This document shows, one piece after another, positions 722 through 6,559 of a stretch of DNA of 23,502 nt; position 1 is the first letter of the stretch, and every line of letters begins with the position of its first letter. The translations under genes were made by a program, and so were the position numbers. The stretch covers positions 1 through 23,502 of the forward strand of contig JANNWY010000319.1 in assembly GCA_031409335.1 (NCBI GenBank), given 5' to 3'. The notes under the pieces are model-generated. The model was not told the DNA's origin. It did not search any database and was given only the letters and a program-made list of their open reading frames with translations. The DNA is from Chthoniobacteraceae bacterium (GTDB taxonomy: Bacteria > Verrucomicrobiota > Verrucomicrobiia > Chthoniobacterales > Chthoniobacteraceae).

Positions 722-2131
722 TCAGGCCCAAGAGGGGAGATAGCACCGATAGCGCGGCGCAGATTGCGCCGGGTTGGCAATTTTGATTGTTCCTGCATCC
801 AAGGTGGCGGAAATGGTCTGCGAAACAGTGGTCATTTTTTCTTCAGTCAGCTTGAAGCGCTCGCGGAGGCTTTGGTTGGTCATTTTCCGGTTCAGCACAT
901 AACAGAGGCAGCAGTGCTGGTAACAGGCGCGGATGCGGTCGGTGCGTTCCATTTGCTCGAAGGGGCGTGGATGCAGCAGCAGGACCGAGAAGCGCTTGAA
1001 CCCCGTGCGGAAATCCGGGGCGGGCAATTGGGCGAGTTCGATGGCCTGGATGACCTTGTCCACGCCACTGCCCTTCTCCTCAGAAATCGCGAAGCGGCGC
1101 ATGAGGTCGGCCAGGCGTTCGTTGCGCGACTGGTAGCCATCAATGAACCGGTCGGAAGGAACCAGGGGTTCACCGGGATTAGAGATTTCCACACGGTCAG
1201 GATAAATCTCGATCATCACCGACATGCCGGTGAGCGAGAAGTCCTGGTGGATGAGGGCATTGGCGACGAGTTCGCGGATGACGATTTCGGGCACGAGTTT
1301 CATCTCCTTGCGCAGGGCGTCCTCGATGATTTCGTTCTGCGGGAGCTGGCCCATGATGAAGCGGATCAGGTCCTGAAAGCCGGTGGCGTAGCCTTTGATC
1401 GCCAGTTGATCCAGCCGGGTATCAAGCTTGGACGTGCCTTGGTAAACGATGGTGCGGGCGGCCTTGCGGGAAAGGTCGGGGAACTCAGAAAGCCGCTTTG
1501 CCAGCAGCAAGGCACTGAGGCGACGGATGGCATAGCTGCCGTCAATCAAGTCCACGAGGCGTTCTTGCTGGAGTCGGTCCAGGACACCGAGCTGATGGGT
1601 GGGGTAAGGTAATTTGAGCAGTTCAAAGAAGGTCTGTGTATCGAGAAGTTCCACGACTTGCTGGGCATCGAGCCCTTGTCGGGAATGCTCCTCCAGCCAG
1701 TCGGGTTGGCCTTCGGCGAAAATGCGACGGAGCTGGTCCTCGCTCATGGGCACCAATTCCTCGCCTGAGCGCATGAGGTAGGTGCCGTCGAGATGGTAGG
1801 CGGTGCCGCGTGGTCGGCCAGGGATGTGACAAACCACGACGCGCCCCGCCGGATGTGCGACGGCCTCCACATCCACCCGAAAGCCGAGCGTCGCGAAAAG
1901 TTTCTCGGCCATGCCCACCGGATCGTTCACAGCGGCTGAACCGACAACCGGGCGCGGAGGCTGATCGGCGATACCGAATAATAGATGGCCGCCACCTTCA
2001 TTGGCCAAGGCCACGCAGTATTTGCAGAGTTTGCCAAAATCGAACTGCGTCTTCGCCTCCTTAAACTCCAAGCGCTGGTGTTCCGAGGAAGATTGGCGCC
2101 AGAGGTCGATTTGCTCCGCGGTCGTGCTCAT
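722..2131 (-). CDS. Schlafen/AlbA_2 domain protein with HATPase_c_4 (RecG C-terminal-like) region and probable C-terminal HTH
   Basis: N-terminal SEHQRLEFKEAK...VALANEGGGHLLFGIAD (AlbA_2); central IRELVANALIHQDF...IEIYPDRVEISNPG...SRNERLADLMRR...EEKGSG (HATPase_c_4). ATGA overlap with the hsdM stop. Confidence 0.85.
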   Translation of the reverse strand: MSTTAEQIDLWRQSSSEHQRLEFKEAKTQFDFGKLCKYCVALANEGGGHLLFGIADQPPRPVVGSAAVNDPVGMAEKLFATLGFRVDVEAVAHPAGRVVVCHIPGRPRGTAYHLDGTYLMRSGEELVPMSEDQLRRIFAEGQPDWLEEHSRQGLDAQQVVELLDTQTFFELLKLPYPTHQLGVLDRLQQERLVDLIDGSYAIRRLSALLLAKRLSEFPDLSRKAARTIVYQGTSKLDTRLDQLAIKGYATGFQDLIRFIMGQLPQNEIIEDALRKEMKLVPEIVIRELVANALIHQDFSLTGMSVMIEIYPDRVEISNPGEPLVPSDRFIDGYQSRNERLADLMRRFAISEEKGSGVDKVIQAIELAQLPAPDFRTGFKRFSVLLLHPRPFEQMERTDRIRACYQHCCLCYVLNRKMTNQSLRERFKLTEEKMTTVSQTISATLDAGTIKIANPAQSAPRYRCYLPSWA

Positions 2132-4521
2132 GGCTTGGCTCCCTTCGTGATTTCGTGGAGCAGGCCTTCGGTCTCCTGCTCCAGCGCGAGGATGTCGGCG
2201 CTGATCTGGGCGAGGGTGCGGAGCTGGGGCGGCTGGTAGAAGTGGCGGGTGAAACTGACTTCGTAGCCGATCCTGGTGTCGGCCTCGACGAGCCAGGCGT
2301 CGGGCGTGTAGGGCAGAACTTCGCGGCGGATGAAGGCTTCGATGCCGCCCTCCTCCAGCAGCGGGATTTGCTCGAAGTCGCGGAGTTCGCTGTCGGGCTC
2401 GTATTCGACGACGACATCATGGTTGCCCCTCACCCCGGCCCTCTCCCCATCCGATGGGGCGAGGGAGAAGAAGCCGTGCAATGGGTCGGCCTTCATCTTG
2501 CCGGGCTTGTGGATTTTCTTGATGACGCGGGGCGCATCCTCGACGCGCCAACTGACGGCGTTGACGATGAGCTTGAGTTCGGAGGCGCTTGGCTTGCCCT
2601 GTCCTGAGCTGGTCGAAGGGAGATCGAGTTTCTTGAGCGCGGCCTCCACGTCTTTCAAGAAGACGTTGTGGTCCTCGAAAAGCTCATCACCGAGGGCCTT
2701 GCGGAGCTGGTTCGCGACATCGAGGAGCATGGCATCCCGCCGCCAGGTGGCTTCGCTGAGGAGCTTCTTTTTCTTTTTGTCGGAGAGGCTCTTCTTCGGC
2801 GTGTCGGTTTCGCCTTCCTCGTCCTCGTCGCCTTCGCTGTCAGCCTTGCCCCAGTCGTTGACGAGATGCTCCAGTTGCGGGCGGACGGAGGCGGGATCGG
2901 TGAAGAGGGCGTCGCCGAGTTCGGCGTGGAGGGCGGCGCGGATGTCCTCATCGCCGGAGGCGTAGCGCAGGGGATCGATGCGCGGGCGGGTGAGTTGGCT
3001 GTGGAGGCGGAGCGGGCGCTCGACCTTCACCTTCCAGTAACCGAATGCCTTGTTCGGAAAGATTTTCGACTGAGGCGTTTCCTCAAAGGCGAGGAAGGTG
3101 TCGCAGATGCGCTGGATGTCCTCGGCGGCGAGTTCGCAGTTCTTCTTGCCCATGTTCTTGCGCAGGGGCCGGAACCATTGGGTGGCGTCGATGAGCTGGA
3201 CTTTGCCCTGGCGCGGCGCGGCCTTGCGGTTGGTGAGCACCCAGACGTAGGTGGCGATGCCGGTGTTGTAGAACATGTTCAGCGGGAGGGCGACGATGGC
3301 CTCCAGCCAGTCGTTCTCGATGACCCAGCGGCGGATGTTGCTCTCGCCCTGCCCGGCGTCGCCGGTGAAAAGCGAGGAGCCGTTGTGCACCTCGGCGATG
3401 CGGCTGCCGAGCGGGGTGTCGTGCTTCATCTTGCTGAGCATGTTGGCCAGAAAGAGCATCTGGCCGTCGCTGCTGCGGGTGATGAGGGAGTATTCAGGAT
3501 CGCCCGCGTGCTCGATGAGGAAGCGCGGGTCTTTGACGTCCTTCTTTCCACCTTCGCCGCTCATTCGCTCCAGGTCGCTCTTCCAGCTTTTGCCGTAGGG
3601 CGGATTGGCGAGCATGAAGTCGAAGGTGCGGGAGCGGAACTGGTCGTTCGACAGGGTGGAGAAGGCGGGGCCGCCGACGATGTTGTCCGCCGCGTCGCCG
3701 TCGCCTTTGAGCAGGAGGTCGGCTTTGCAGATGGCGTAGGTCTCGGCATTGATCTCCTGCCCGTAAAGGTGGGTGGCGACCTGCTTGCCGTGGTCTTTCG
3801 CGATCTTCTGGAGCGTTTCCTCCGCGACGGTCAACATGCCGCCGGTGCCGCAGGCGCAGTCGTAGAGCAGGTAGGTGCCGGACTCGATCTTGTCGGCCAC
3901 GGGCAGGAACATGAGGCTGGCCATGAGCTTGACGGCATCACGCGGCGTCCAGTGCTGACCAGCTTCCTCGTTGTTGTCCTCATTGAACATGCGCACGAGG
4001 TCCTCGAAGACGGTGCCCATGGAGTGATTGTCGAGGCCGGGCAACTCGCCGACGGGTCGGGGGCTGAGGTTGATGTCCTTGTCGAGGAACTTCTCGATGA
4101 GCTGGCCGAGGCCGTCGGACTCGGAGAGCCGGGGGATTTGATTGCGAAACTCGAAGTTCTTGAGGATGTCCTGCACGTTCGGGGAGAAGCCGTCGAGGTA
4201 GGCCATGAAGTCGTCCTTCAGCGTCTGCTGCGTCTTGCGCGACTTCAGGTCACGCAGGAGGAAGGGGGAGGTGTTGTAAAAGGCCTGCCCTGAGGCGGCG
4301 CGAAGGGCGTCGTCCTGATTGATGATGCCGCCCTTGTCGAGCGCGGCCTTCATTTCGAGCACAGCATCCTTCGTGGGCTCCAGCACGGCATCCAGGCGAC
4401 GCAGGACGGTCATTGGCAGGATCACATCCCGGTATTTGCCGCGCACGAAGACGTCGCGGAGGGTATCGTCGGCGATGCCCCAGATGAAGTTGGTGATCCA
4501 GTTGAGTTGTGCTTGGTCCAT
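2128..4521 (-). CDS. hsdM: Type I restriction-modification methyltransferase (M subunit), 797 aa
   Basis: NFIWGIADDTLRD..RGKYRDVILPMTVLRRLD N-terminus, GQHWTPRD, motif I YDCACGTGGML, YGQEIN, catalytic NPPY, LPLNMFYNTGIATY, C-terminal IGYEVSFTRHFY. Confidence 0.95.
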   Translation of the reverse strand: MDQAQLNWITNFIWGIADDTLRDVFVRGKYRDVILPMTVLRRLDAVLEPTKDAVLEMKAALDKGGIINQDDALRAASGQAFYNTSPFLLRDLKSRKTQQTLKDDFMAYLDGFSPNVQDILKNFEFRNQIPRLSESDGLGQLIEKFLDKDINLSPRPVGELPGLDNHSMGTVFEDLVRMFNEDNNEEAGQHWTPRDAVKLMASLMFLPVADKIESGTYLLYDCACGTGGMLTVAEETLQKIAKDHGKQVATHLYGQEINAETYAICKADLLLKGDGDAADNIVGGPAFSTLSNDQFRSRTFDFMLANPPYGKSWKSDLERMSGEGGKKDVKDPRFLIEHAGDPEYSLITRSSDGQMLFLANMLSKMKHDTPLGSRIAEVHNGSSLFTGDAGQGESNIRRWVIENDWLEAIVALPLNMFYNTGIATYVWVLTNRKAAPRQGKVQLIDATQWFRPLRKNMGKKNCELAAEDIQRICDTFLAFEETPQSKIFPNKAFGYWKVKVERPLRLHSQLTRPRIDPLRYASGDEDIRAALHAELGDALFTDPASVRPQLEHLVNDWGKADSEGDEDEEGETDTPKKSLSDKKKKKLLSEATWRRDAMLLDVANQLRKALGDELFEDHNVFLKDVEAALKKLDLPSTSSGQGKPSASELKLIVNAVSWRVEDAPRVIKKIHKPGKMKADPLHGFFSLAPSDGERAGVRGNHDVVVEYEPDSELRDFEQIPLLEEGGIEAFIRREVLPYTPDAWLVEADTRIGYEVSFTRHFYQPPQLRTLAQISADILALEQETEGLLHEITKGAKP
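2426..2467. repeat. About 42-bp palindromic REP-like element in frame inside hsdM (encodes SLAPSDGERAGVRG)
   Basis: cccctcaccccggccctctccccatccgatggggcgagggag, with hairpin ccctctccccat-ccg-atggggcgaggg (1 mismatch). Resembles a widespread intergenic palindromic repeat type. Confidence 0.7.
2597..2620. repeat. 24-bp REP-like element in frame inside hsdM (encodes PSTSSGQG)
   Basis: ccctgtcctgagctggtcgaaggg with CCCT/AGGG inverted ends; splits KKLDL|KPSASELK. Resembles the common cctgagc..gtcgaagg repeat. Confidence 0.65.
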
Positions 4522-4601
4522 AAAAAGGGATTTCGGTTTAGGCGGCTAAGAGGAGCGGAGTGGTGCTGATGTCGGCGAGCTTGCTGCCGTGGGATTCGAC
4601 G

Positions 4602-4632
4602 AATTGCCAATCTGTCGCTTCGCTCCGTAATT
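4602..4632 (-). repeat. Mini-insertion of about 24-27 bp flanked by AATT direct repeats (encodes LRSEATDWQ)
   Basis: Minus strand g-aatt-acggagcgaagcgacagattggc-aatt; shares cggagcgaagcg with the insert at 5423-5459. Confidence 0.65.
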
Positions 4633-4672
4633 CCGACTGCACGAACATGCCGCCGGAGCCGCAGGCGGGGTC

Positions 4673-4762
4673 AGGGGGAATGTTGAATAACGAATTTCGA
4701 ATGACGAATGGGCGCGAGGTTTTCACTTCGACACTCGCACTTCGGACTTCGCACTTTGCCAC
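4673..4762. repeat. 90-bp insertion made of two heptamer tandem arrays, replacing the conserved FYTP segment of HsdM
   Basis: gaatgtt/gaataac/gaatttc/gaatgac/gaat (4678-4709) and cacttcg/acactcg/cacttcg/gacttcg/cactttg (4724-4758). Confidence 0.8.
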
Positions 4763-4807
4763 GCCGCCGTTCTTGCCCTCGGCGCTGGCGAAGCGGGTGA
4801 GGAAATA

Positions 4808-4915
4808 TTGATGAGCGCCGCCGTGCTCACCCTGGCTCGCCCATTTCCCAGCCTCCACTATTCCCCTCCGCCTCCTCGGCGGGCTGCCTGCGGCAGTCTT
4901 TGTCGCTCCGCTCCA
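4808..4915 (-). repeat. 63-bp hairpin element carrying a nested 45-bp insert (4834-4878)
   Basis: After removing 4834-4878, the first 47 nt match 5273-5319 at 39/47. Inserted at the HsdM VY(E)|YFL site. Confidence 0.8.
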
Positions 4916-5026
4916 ATCATAAACGCGGCCAAGCAGATCGACGGAGCGGTGGGTCTTCTCGCCCTCGCTGGCGGCGGTGAGTTCGATGGTAGCGATGACG
5001 TCGATGAGTTCGCCGAGGCGCTGGTT

Positions 5027-5095
5027 ATCCTTCGCTGCGCTCAGGCTCTGCGGTGTGGCTGCGCGTGGGGAGAGGGCGCTGCCGCGCCGGGCAGT
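5027..5095 (-). repeat. 69-bp composite REP-like insertion (encodes TARRGSALSPRAATPQSLSAAKD)
   Basis: Hairpin ctgcc-cggcgc-ggcag, a ccctctcccca piece shared with the 2426-2467 element, and cctgagcgcagcgaaggat. Splits RPGLD|(K)QRLGELID. Confidence 0.7.
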
Positions 5096-5272
5096 GTCGA
5101 GGCCGGGGCGGGTGTAGTCCTTGGGGAGGACGCCTTTGAGGCGCGGGTTGTCGCGCTCAATGGCGACCATGTCGTCGTCCACGGTCTTGCCGATGGTGGG
5201 AAGTCTGGCCGACCCCAGGAGGTGAGACCAGCGGGCATCGGCGGGCACCCAGAAGACGTTCTCGGCTTTGTA

Positions 5273-5401
5273 TTGATTCGCGCCTCCGCGCTCACCCTTC
5301 GGGCTGCCTTTGGCAGGCTGTTTGCCGTGCGCTGCCGCGCCCGCCCTTGCGGGCTGCACTTCGTGCAGGCTATCTCGTTCCACTCGGTTCGCTCCGCTCG
5401 G
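5273..5401 (-). repeat. 63-bp hairpin element with a related 66-bp copy nested inside it (5324-5389)
   Basis: Outer copy ttgattcgcgcctccgcgctcacccttcgggctgcctttggcaggctgttt...cgctccgctcgg; inner copy ..gcgctgccgcgcccgcccttgcgggctgcacttcgtgcaggctatctcgttccactcgg has the same two-hairpin layout. Confidence 0.8.
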
Positions 5402-5422
5402 CTCCGCCGCGTCCATGTTGTT

Positions 5423-5459
5423 GCTCCGGTTGCCTTCGGCTGTCTCCGCTTCGCTCCGG
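5423..5459 (-). repeat. 30-bp mini-insertion bounded by a 7-bp direct repeat (gctccgg)
   Basis: gctccgg at 5423-5429 and 5453-5459. Minus strand contains gcGAAgc and gccGAAggc hairpins; lies in HsdM LWLTAD|..NNMDAAE. Confidence 0.7.
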
Positions 5460-5538
5460 CTGTCGGCGGTGAGCCAGAGCTTGGCCTCGAAGCCGATGGT
5501 GGAGGTGGAGGTGGCGGAGGCGGTGGATGCTTTTCGGC

Positions 5539-6096
5539 TCATGGCTTCTTCGACTTGGACTGTTTGGATTGTCGCAGCTTCTTTACCTCGGTATCAAGCA
5601 GGCCGAGCAGGTCCACTTCCTCTTGCGCTTCCAGTGCTTTCCGTCGGCGGGCGGCGAAGCGTTCATATTCCGCCTCCGCCAACTGGTGCGCCTCCTCGCC
5701 GCTCACTTTTCCAGCATCAGGCAAAATCTCCCGTTCGTTCAGATTTAGGAAATCATGGAGCTGCGTCACTCAGTTCTGGAGGAAGATTTGTTTTTTACGC
5801 CGCGCATGATCCTCCGCGAAATCCAGGAACATCACGACGAGCCGGTTCAGTTCCTCAATCTTGTCCTCGCGCAGGTAGTTCTTCGCCACCGTCACAGCGC
5901 CTTTGCGCACCACTCCGCTGCGCCAGGCCATCAGGCCCATGTTCGGCTGGGCGGAGTCCGCCCGCTCGGCGATCAACTCCGCCGCCGTCCTCCCCGTGGC
6001 AGCGAAGTGCAGTTTGTTCTGGATGGTCTGGAAAAACACCCGCGTCTCCCGCTCCGTGGCTTCGTAATCCGCTGCCGGCGCGAGAATCTCCCGCAC
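5539..6096 (-). pseudogene. rhuM: RhuM-family protein, C-terminal half, 5'-truncated with an internal TGA at 5770-5772
   Basis: VREI.A.AADY...FFQTIQNKLHFAATGRTAAELIAERAD...PNMGL..W...VAKNYL...IEELNRLVVMFLDFAE...QN*VTQLHDFL.LNEREIL..AGKVS. The frame continues past the TGA (likely a former TGG/Trp); the stop overlaps the ATG of the hsdM remnant. Confidence 0.85.
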
Positions 6097-6495
6097 CGGA
6101 GTGAAATCGCCGGAGATCGTCGAATCGAGATAGAAGACTCCGCGCATCGCGAGTTCGTGCGCACTCTCGATGGCCGCGTCCGGCTCACCCGTCGTTGTGT
6201 CCAAAATGATCTGCCCGGCCCGCAAATGCGCGGCACCTTCCGCCAGCACCGCGCGCACTTCGCGATGGCTCGGCAAACTCAGCAGCACCACATCGCAAGT
6301 GCCGAGCACCGCATTGGCATCCCCCGCCACCTCGCCGCCCAACGCGGCGAACGCTGCAACACCCTGCGCATCCGTATCAAAGCCGCGCACCGCAAATCCA
6401 CCGTCCCGCAACCGACTCGCGAGTGCGCTGCCCATGAGCCCGAGACCGATGATGCCATTTGCAGACGGAGTGCTTGGTTGGGTGGAGTTCATCAT
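6097..6495 (-). pseudogene. NAD(P)-binding domain of a 3-hydroxyisobutyrate/6-phosphogluconate dehydrogenase-family protein, fused in frame to the rhuM remnant
   Basis: GIIGLGLMGSALA Rossmann motif, CDVVLLSLP, IILDTTTG, YLDSTISG. Similarity ends near 6109, where RhuM sequence takes over. Confidence 0.8.
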
Positions 6496-6559
6496 GAATA
6501 GTTCGCGCACGATGGACAGCGGGTGCGCGCCGCTACATGGCAGAACTACCCGCCGCCGA

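Follow-up and report, generated by a model that had tools for sequence, protein, structure and literature searches.

A decayed hsdM gene with six frame-preserving foreign segments, most of its hairpin repeats likely inherited with the gene

The window analysed here is a whole 23.5-kb contig (C319) of a draft genome of 7.94 Mb and 62% GC, which we label G000; G, L and P numbers denote the other genomes, loci and proteins compared. On its minus strand, between positions 4538 and 5542, lies a 334-codon open reading frame (ORF), a pseudogene of hsdM in which seven host blocks alternate with six foreign segments. Our analysis indicates that this ORF is probably the non-functional remnant of a horizontally mobile hsdM allele, and that the elements in five of its six segments were likely already loaded into the gene when it was acquired.

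The six segments (i1 to i6, in the direction of translation) fall into three families: A, to which i1, i2, i4 and i6 belong; B, represented by the 69 bp of i3; and C, represented by the 90 bp of i5. The original prediction, made on the letters of this DNA, had spoken of six different mini-elements. This does not hold, as the four A segments, with two nested copies in i2, form a single superfamily: the outer elements of i2 and i4 are the same 63-bp A, i2 nests a second A of 66 bp, and i1 and i6 are short fragments sharing an A-like core, GAGCGAAGCG.

Segment boundaries were set by aligning the remnant DNA to an insert-free homologue, L025:3448-5121, with which it shares 87.9% identity over 643 aligned bases. 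Read from its start codon (all coordinates being on the minus strand), block 1 extends to ...LWLTAD (5463..5542) and is followed by i1 (5423..5461; also labeled "F"), an A-like fragment with a GAGCGAAGCGG core, where 39 nt stand in place of 9 nt (KLR), a net gain of 30. Block 2 (NNMDAAE, 5403..5422) leads into the 129 nt of i2 (5274..5402), a 63-bp A element with the 66-bp A nested at 5322..5387. Block 3 (YKAENVFW...RPGLD, 5096..5273) precedes i3, the B element (5027..5095), and block 4 (NQRLGELID...LLGRVY, 4917..5026) precedes the 108 nt of i4 (4809..4916), a 63-bp A at the RVY(E)Y site that harbors a nested 45-bp repeat, N45 (4835..4879). Next come block 5 (YFLTRFASAEGKNGG, 4763..4808) and i5, the C element (4673..4762), which has inverted heptamer-repeat arms and puts 90 nt in place of 72 host nt (QFYTP...GRIY), a net gain of 18. 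Block 6 (DPACGSGGMFVQSE, 4631..4672), the 24-nt A-like fragment i6 with its GAGCGAAGCGA core (4607..4630) and block 7 (QFVESHGSKLADIS, 4565..4606) complete the series. A non-HsdM tail ending in a TAA stop (4538..4564) marks the 3' truncation point, all from YGQE onward being gone. The coordinates of the nested 66-bp and 45-bp inserts are hand counts from alignments and pattern outputs.

The net length change at all six segments is a multiple of three. The single ORF of seven HsdM blocks and six frame-preserving foreign segments that had been predicted is thus borne out by the DNA alignment to L025. The predicted boundary of the 69-bp segment is exact and the other segment coordinates are close; both nested inserts are confirmed, and so is the gap of 16 nt to the next ATG (4521). 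The lengths first assigned to the first and last segments (37 and 31 nt) are not multiples of three, but the net changes at these places are.

Where i2 joins DAAE straight to YKAEN, 42 host codons (YKHVV...DPDE) are gone; another 24 (QFYTP...GRIY) have been replaced by i5, and everything after ...KLADIS is missing, catalytic NPPF included. The N-terminal YKHVVLGLIFLKY helix and the FYTP region fall within the deleted or replaced stretches of 42 and 24 codons. Only marginal Pfam matches survive, HsdM_N (9.4e-5) and N6_Mtase (2.1e-3), both under their gathering scores; the latter reaches 17.8 bits, short of its cut-off of 20.4, and extends over no more of the profile than positions 7-82 out of 311. 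Because the 42 codons, the 24 codons and everything past KLADIS are lost, the remnant as predicted from its sequence cannot work as an HsdM methyltransferase. The same three losses had been proposed at the outset, along with the death of the enzyme, and the alignment confirms the former and supports the latter.

In hsdM genes from other Verrucomicrobia metagenome-assembled genomes (MAGs), the elements of five of the six segments are found again, each at the site it has here. Chance does not account for the arrangement, as independent assemblies show these segments in identical places. Locus L001 has the identical 129-bp composite at reference position 232 (between DPDE and Y), the 69-bp B at 411 and the 63-bp A at 520, and subsets of the window's elements stand at the same sites in L002, L004, L005, L006, L007, L020 and L030. 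Source titles of the related loci name Verrucomicrobia, Chthoniobacteraceae, Prosthecobacter and similar organisms. Segment i1 is found at its site in P0005, P0025 and P0042, B at the i3 site in L001, L002, L005, L020, L030 and 18 listed proteins, and the C replacement of i5 in L003 and in P0004, P0005, P0006, P0008, P0012, P0018 and P0030; the i6 site is filled by a longer element in P0017 and P0022 (protein alignment). Within G000, none of the six segments is present in full length a second time, and motif scans of the six-frame translation and of the DNA agree on this. The host blocks, for their part, are 88-95% identical in DNA sequence to insert-free hsdM genes in several phyla (titles: Betaproteobacteria, Chthoniobacter, Kapaibacterium, Gemmatimonadota and others), and the backbone is therefore a widely transferred allele. 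Taken together, these comparisons suggest that most of the hairpin repeats were likely inherited with the gene, not acquired in this genome.

The original prediction had viewed the locus as a sink for miniature mobile DNA, and one may picture an active sink, with elements inserted at this locus in situ in G000. Such a view could draw on N45, which is specific to the window copy (the A element at that site lacks it in L001, L002, L004, L006 and L007) and has relatives in G000, and on the fact that the genome possesses its own A subfamily, with six pattern matches. However, hsdM genes of other genomes carry the other five segments in identical positions, G000 has no further copy of B, C, i1 or i6, and its A copies form a distinct 68-bp subfamily residing in insertion sequence (IS) genes or intergenic DNA. 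The genome search thus left most segments with no other genomic copy, N45 being the only one with relatives there, and we hold an active sink to be very improbable. N45 itself, native to G000, may have been inserted after the gene's arrival. A strict pattern for it has eight matches in the genome, the window copy and seven others of 44-45 bp (C86:587, C108, C119:328, C160:1221, C180:7773, C224:22963 and C258:1808). The repeat is G-rich, and some copies adjoin heptamer tandem repeats or other small hairpins; no Rfam match was found at six N45 loci. A second doubt concerns the assembly, as the arrangement could be a chimera of co-occurring hsdM variants. In the public runs that best cover the region, which consist of short contigs only, the hsdM blocks reach a summed depth in the hundreds where the flanks stay near 10; joints without an insert at i3 and i4, stemming from other organisms, are present too, and none of the listed contigs extends across the whole region. 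Against a chimera, exact unitigs at flank-like depth (9-12) cover 4300-4660 (the 3' junction and i6), 4794-4908 (the N45 part of i4) and 5473-5800, a support that is not independent, as the best run is possibly the source sample; the same composite inserts are present in independent MAGs. A chimera is accordingly given very little credence here.

Alignment of 45 distinct copies of A defined its organization: three variable bases, the invariant GAGCGGAGCGA and a variable hairpin are followed by the invariant CCCG(A/C)AGGG, a second variable hairpin and a terminal (G/T)CA. The 63-bp element is a string of four hairpins, with 16 pairs in four helices, 11 of them changed on both sides. Helix cells are paired in 90.5% of cases versus 32-42% with the partners slid, and 150 cells are changed on both sides versus 48.7 in shuffles, with none of 500 shuffles scoring as high. 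Nearly no G-U pairs occur in the stems, a scarcity that points to DNA hairpins and away from an RNA fold; Rfam 15 gave a single chance-level match (E 0.85) on window positions 4300-5800. Insertion sites have only SA^A in common. The ends of the element (NNN-GAGCGG... and ...YCA) are not inverted repeats, and when filled sites are compared with empty ones, no more than 1-3 ambiguous bases are common to both, with no clear target duplication. A further family read as SRAERD.../YSRAERDR... was considered and rejected, as it is A translated in another frame.

The A pattern is present in 10 of 401 sampled genomes of this phylum (19 matches on 15 contigs in G001, nine in G353 and six in G000), and the family, though low in copy number, occurs widely in metagenomes from soil and freshwater. 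We found no prior description of a 63-bp four-hairpin family with these invariant motifs, which to judge from the sequence would be new; the matches listed by a literal literature search for the A motif were, judged by title, unrelated to bacterial repeats. G000's own copies (C15:31667, C253:21831, C21:29180, C53:2090, C253:21271 and C316:1112) differ from those of the window in having the first hairpin CCAAAGG-GCGGAG-CCTTTG. Copies in an IS3 orfB and in an IS1634-like transposase split each of these genes between frames, and others lie in a 5' leader or in intergenic DNA; that the copies measure 68 bp and break the frame is deduced from how the transposase parts on either side are read. No empty paralogous sites were found for these copies, IS copies collapsing at contig ends. 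The same 68-bp subfamily is seen in metagenome contigs L165, L174, L182, L185, L195 and L196. In the complete genome G353 (3.09 Mb; L101-L109), nine A-type copies measure 67-70 bp, seven of them 68 bp; they sit in short open frames and look intergenic, several within tandem heptamer arrays (CACGAAG, GAATGAC). Another copy, at 260-322 of L085 (G001:C49:1-1801), lies at the 5' end or just upstream of a C-5 cytosine DNA methylase ORF, whose residues 108-368 match Pfam DNA_methylase.

Family B has a different distribution. The real copies found all lie in an hsdM gene or remnant: G001, G002, G003 (two), G005, G500 and G447 contain them, with the proviso that one of the two copies in G500 was examined and has hsdM sequence on its flanks, and that the only flank in G447 is "VLA", leaving its hsdM origin uncertain. 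Run on 151 genomes of the class, with G000 included, the B pattern is unmatched in 149, and viral contigs gave 0 matches. In P0044 numbering, a 24-residue B peptide appears to replace exactly one host codon at residues 138, 210, 302, 336 and 370 (K, K, W, G and C, respectively), while a 23-residue form is inserted in P0031 with no host residue lost. A 4-bp target duplication was envisaged for B and rejected, since it fails at the site between DSD and W; no duplication model fits. As to C, its inverted heptamer arms, read from the sequence, make it the only family here resembling a miniature inverted-repeat transposable element (MITE).

What, then, accounts for the open frame? Among recognised element insertions in related hsdM loci, 25 of 27 are multiples of three (63, 66, 69, 81 and 129 bp), and both exceptions (62 and 59 bp) sit in the visibly decayed L020. 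Elements are also found in full-length HsdM ORFs that retain NPPF and span reference positions 1-522 or more, namely P0121 (644 aa), with three B and one 81-bp "E" element, P0122 (603 aa), with five elements, and P0123 (591 aa), with two. They thus appear to be tolerated in full-length hsdM genes with the catalytic motif. A structure prediction for P0122 (34-row alignment) gave a mean pLDDT of 33.8 and a pTM of 0.24, and no mapping of inserts to loops was drawn from it. An intrinsic bias of the elements for lengths divisible by three, suggested originally, is borne out only in part, and such a length is not intrinsic to A. Of 47 distinct A copies in the compared loci, 27 have such lengths, 63 bp being modal (22 copies), but 20 do not (68 bp in eight of these); an unbiased metagenome pattern scan returned 50 measurable matches, some of them probably due to chance (such as L139, a release-factor gene), divided between 24 multiples of three and 26 other lengths. 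Position in genes follows length: the Sulfatase match of L087 and the Aminotran_5 match of L178 each run on unbroken across an in-frame 63-bp copy, an IS110 transposase (L082) likewise has one in frame, and copies of 64-68 bp coincide with interrupted RT, AbiEii, ISL3 and DDE domains.

We propose that insertions would have been filtered for a length divisible by three and an open frame while hsdM was still functional. The YKHVV...DPDE stretch could then have been lost through recombination or slippage between two same-frame A copies, and the FYTP stretch through a similar event between C copies; deletions between same-frame copies keep the frame automatically. Truncation of the 3' part may have come after the internal deletions, and the leftover open frame would be incidental. 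In keeping with this scheme, L001 (P0002) carries A between DAAE and Y (reference position 106) and again between DPDE and Y (232), in the same orientation and frame, flanking exactly the stretch missing from the window, and C-linked deletions of other extents are seen in P0006 and P0008. On the sequences compared, recombination between same-frame element copies appears to explain the two internal deletions best. A further hsdM remnant, L249 (G500:C53:5676-9005), has an N-terminus-like MSRKAAAKTNAS joined via B directly to ...LAIRGIEADIGKEHA; the junction looks like a second large internal deletion with a repeat at the joint.

A different account of the open frame, offered by the original prediction with polarity on the intact hsdM gene downstream as its example, is that translation through the remnant is under selection; this could be against polarity of the Rho type or for some new role of the truncated protein. 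It is true that neither the six insertions nor the two internal deletions have closed the frame, which runs for 334 codons, that the remnant's start codon and the stop codon of the ORF before it overlap as ATGA, and that the genes between 6510 and 722 are packed closely into an array on one strand. Yet the antisense strand has an ORF of 333 aa over this DNA (4808..5809, plus strand), a control showing that long frames arise freely in this GC-rich stretch; the foreign segments (48-74% GC) are stop-free in four to six of the six frames. The open frame by itself is no evidence of selection on the remnant. Nor is translation continuous along the array, as RhuM, the gene upstream, has an in-frame stop about 230 nt upstream of the remnant. 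Sister remnants are frameshifted, L020 by its 62- and 59-bp elements, with L003 likewise out of frame, and both Pfam matches of the remnant fall below gathering scores. Moreover, at positions that are invariant elsewhere the window copy has an excess of amino-acid changes of its own: it shows 14 private novel-residue codons, five of which lie away from junctions, beside a single private codon of the synonymous type, and each of 14 comparators has 0-1 private novel-residue codons. By its codons, the remnant is under relaxed constraint, and selected translation seems to us very improbable. Less plausible still is the idea that the elements are removed from the RNA or DNA, or have a function in it, whether as mini-introns, as excisable switches or as modules of HsdM variation. 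Invariant motifs adjoining covarying hairpins, the same two sites filled in a paralogue of 44% identity (see below) and the restriction of B to hsdM are what one might expect in that case. Near-zero G-U pairing, on the other hand, speaks against a selected RNA fold, and Rfam gives no match. Copies with lengths divisible by three are strongly enriched inside genes, and length would not matter under splicing; the remaining copies coincide with interrupted Pfam domains. We attach next to no probability to this idea.

Inheritance of a pre-loaded gene, which we favor, has several points to contend with. The order of events, insertions before inactivation, is an undated inference. The C replacement, which kills the enzyme, is common to the window and L003, yet their host blocks are only about 82-84% identical, and insert-free genes are closer to the window than L003 is (up to about 94%); either the alleles are mosaic, or the dead form is long-lived, with the frame open across the C event in at least eight database ORFs. 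The homology available for recombination between A copies upstream of the nested insert amounts to only about 15 nt, and no single public contig spans the region. B being found only within hsdM is unexpected of an ordinary dispersed selfish repeat, and simple descent does not explain why A fills the same pair of sites in a paralogue of 44% identity.

The paralogue in question, L113 (G004:C2:1426599-1429754), shows 43.6% protein identity to the main lineage. Its A elements, at 1498-1563 and 1612-1677, occupy the homologous sites between VY and EY and between GG and (Q/E)FYTP, and they are the same site-specific variants, with compensatory stem changes, as those of L007 in the same genome, G004. 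A bolder reading, which we find rather unlikely, is that the hsdM lineage hosts gene-family-restricted, coding-compatible selfish elements that spread between alleles by homology to conserved motif DNA rather than through ordinary transposition: B would occur only in hsdM, at no fewer than seven sites, and A would re-home to the sites between VY and EY and between GG and QFYTP even in so distant a paralogue. Were this true, in-frame recombination among elements would yield a stream of deletion variants of a defence gene. The broader suggestion that the elements target restriction-modification genes fails for A and is matched by B only insofar as B is seen only in the hsdM lineage. No HsdM was found beside the A element in any of 80 metagenome loci. 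In G001, 14 of the 19 A matches lie on contigs other than the one with hsdM, although that one gene is heavily loaded and holds four of the 19.

HsdM proteins also vary by insertion elsewhere. Around P0044 residues 395-397 and 444-452 lie two hypervariable loops; different proteins among the HsdM listed have filled them with short inserts that resemble repeats and are of many unrelated kinds, for example GHPLPLGEGRGEG, SLNSQPSTLNS and VRPDPASVRPEP arrays; relative to P0044, an insertion of at least 7 aa is found in 82 of 119 listed proteins.

The genes next to the remnant lie on the same strand. An intact hsdM of another subfamily, encoding 797 aa (2128..4521), starts 16 nt downstream. It has short in-frame repeat-like segments of its own at 2416-2472 and 2575-2622 (FFSLAPSDGERAGVRGNHD and LPSTSSGQGKPSASEL), the FFSLAPSDGERAGVRGNHD segment containing an internal inverted repeat (a 27-nt self-match on the opposite strand); neither has another full copy in G000. 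Upstream, a RhuM pseudogene (5539..6510) consists of two contiguous ORFs in the same frame, separated by a stop at 5770-5772. The middle part of RhuM (profile 97-204) is fused in frame to an N-terminal NAD_binding_2 fragment, and its tail (profile 208-250) follows the stop, with its own stop codon overlapping the remnant ATG.

For annotation, these data mean that a frame open across six insertions need not signify selection on the ORF that contains it. Such a frame can be the fossil of an earlier filter, in a working gene, for stop-poor inserts with lengths divisible by three, followed by frame-neutral recombination between repeats. The A size class divisible by three can live inside genes and the 68-bp class cannot. 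A widely transferred hsdM allele gathers elements at 20 or more sites, and these then mediate internal deletions.

Among known systems, Rickettsia palindromic elements (RPEs) come to mind: they are short palindromic repeats that insert in frame in coding genes and leave them open, the added peptide being tolerated; they form several families, and one gene may be hit repeatedly. The parallel had been drawn in the original prediction and is apt, as the segments here are real insertions of miniature hairpin elements tolerated in frame, found inside otherwise intact genes (P0121-P0123, L087, L178). RPEs, however, are AT-rich, measure 100-150 bp and belong to an obligate intracellular alphaproteobacterium, whereas the present elements are GC-rich, measure 63-90 bp and come from free-living Verrucomicrobia-type genomes, and they are not known to have a sequence motif in common with RPEs. 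Nesting and genic location also recall the small dispersed repeats of cyanobacteria, which Elhai and colleagues reportedly described in 2008 as very small, mobile, nested in one another and occurring inside genes; the phylum and, by description, the sequences differ. With REPIN/RAYT systems and IS200/IS605-derived hairpin elements, A would have in common its DNA-type hairpins, ends that lack long inverted repeats and a target duplication that is slight or absent, and a single-strand (HUH/Y1-type) transposase, which would fit such hairpins, is a candidate for mobilisation. All five genomes tested have matches to the Y1 transposase (PF01797). Only in G001:C130 and G000:C53 are an A copy and a Y1 gene about 1 kb or less apart, no Y1 gene is flanked on both sides, the nearest A-Y1 pair in the complete G353 is about 12 kb apart, and no REPtron-like arrangement was found in these five genomes. 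MITEs, non-autonomous mini-elements able to extend proteins, such as those of Coxiella that insert in frame (PMC5896051; for MITEs in general see the review PMC10969869), differ from A, which is without the 15-30-bp terminal inverted repeats that define them.

Repetitive extragenic palindromes (REPs) of 20-40 bp, tagged at one end by GTAG or CGTC, provide a further parallel. Di Nocera et al. 2013 (PMC3733652), who mention RPEs as background, place such REPs inside genes of the verrucomicrobium Opitutus terrae, where they encode 7-30 extra residues; one of these genes is Oter_3011, whose product, an N-6 DNA methylase, bears a REP dimer at residues 444-496. The A motif and the peptides SGAR, SRAER, GERGG and SEAK are absent from the supplementary files of that paper as searched. 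The invariant and near-invariant columns of A (45 copies) include neither GTAG nor CGTC, and A is a fixed string of four hairpins, not the single palindrome or dimer described in that paper. The REP dimer of Oter_3011, as reported there, matches the hypervariable loop at P0044 residues 444-452. The form taken by the elements of the hsdM remnant is little described, and intragenic palindromic repeats as a kind are already known from RPEs and REPs.

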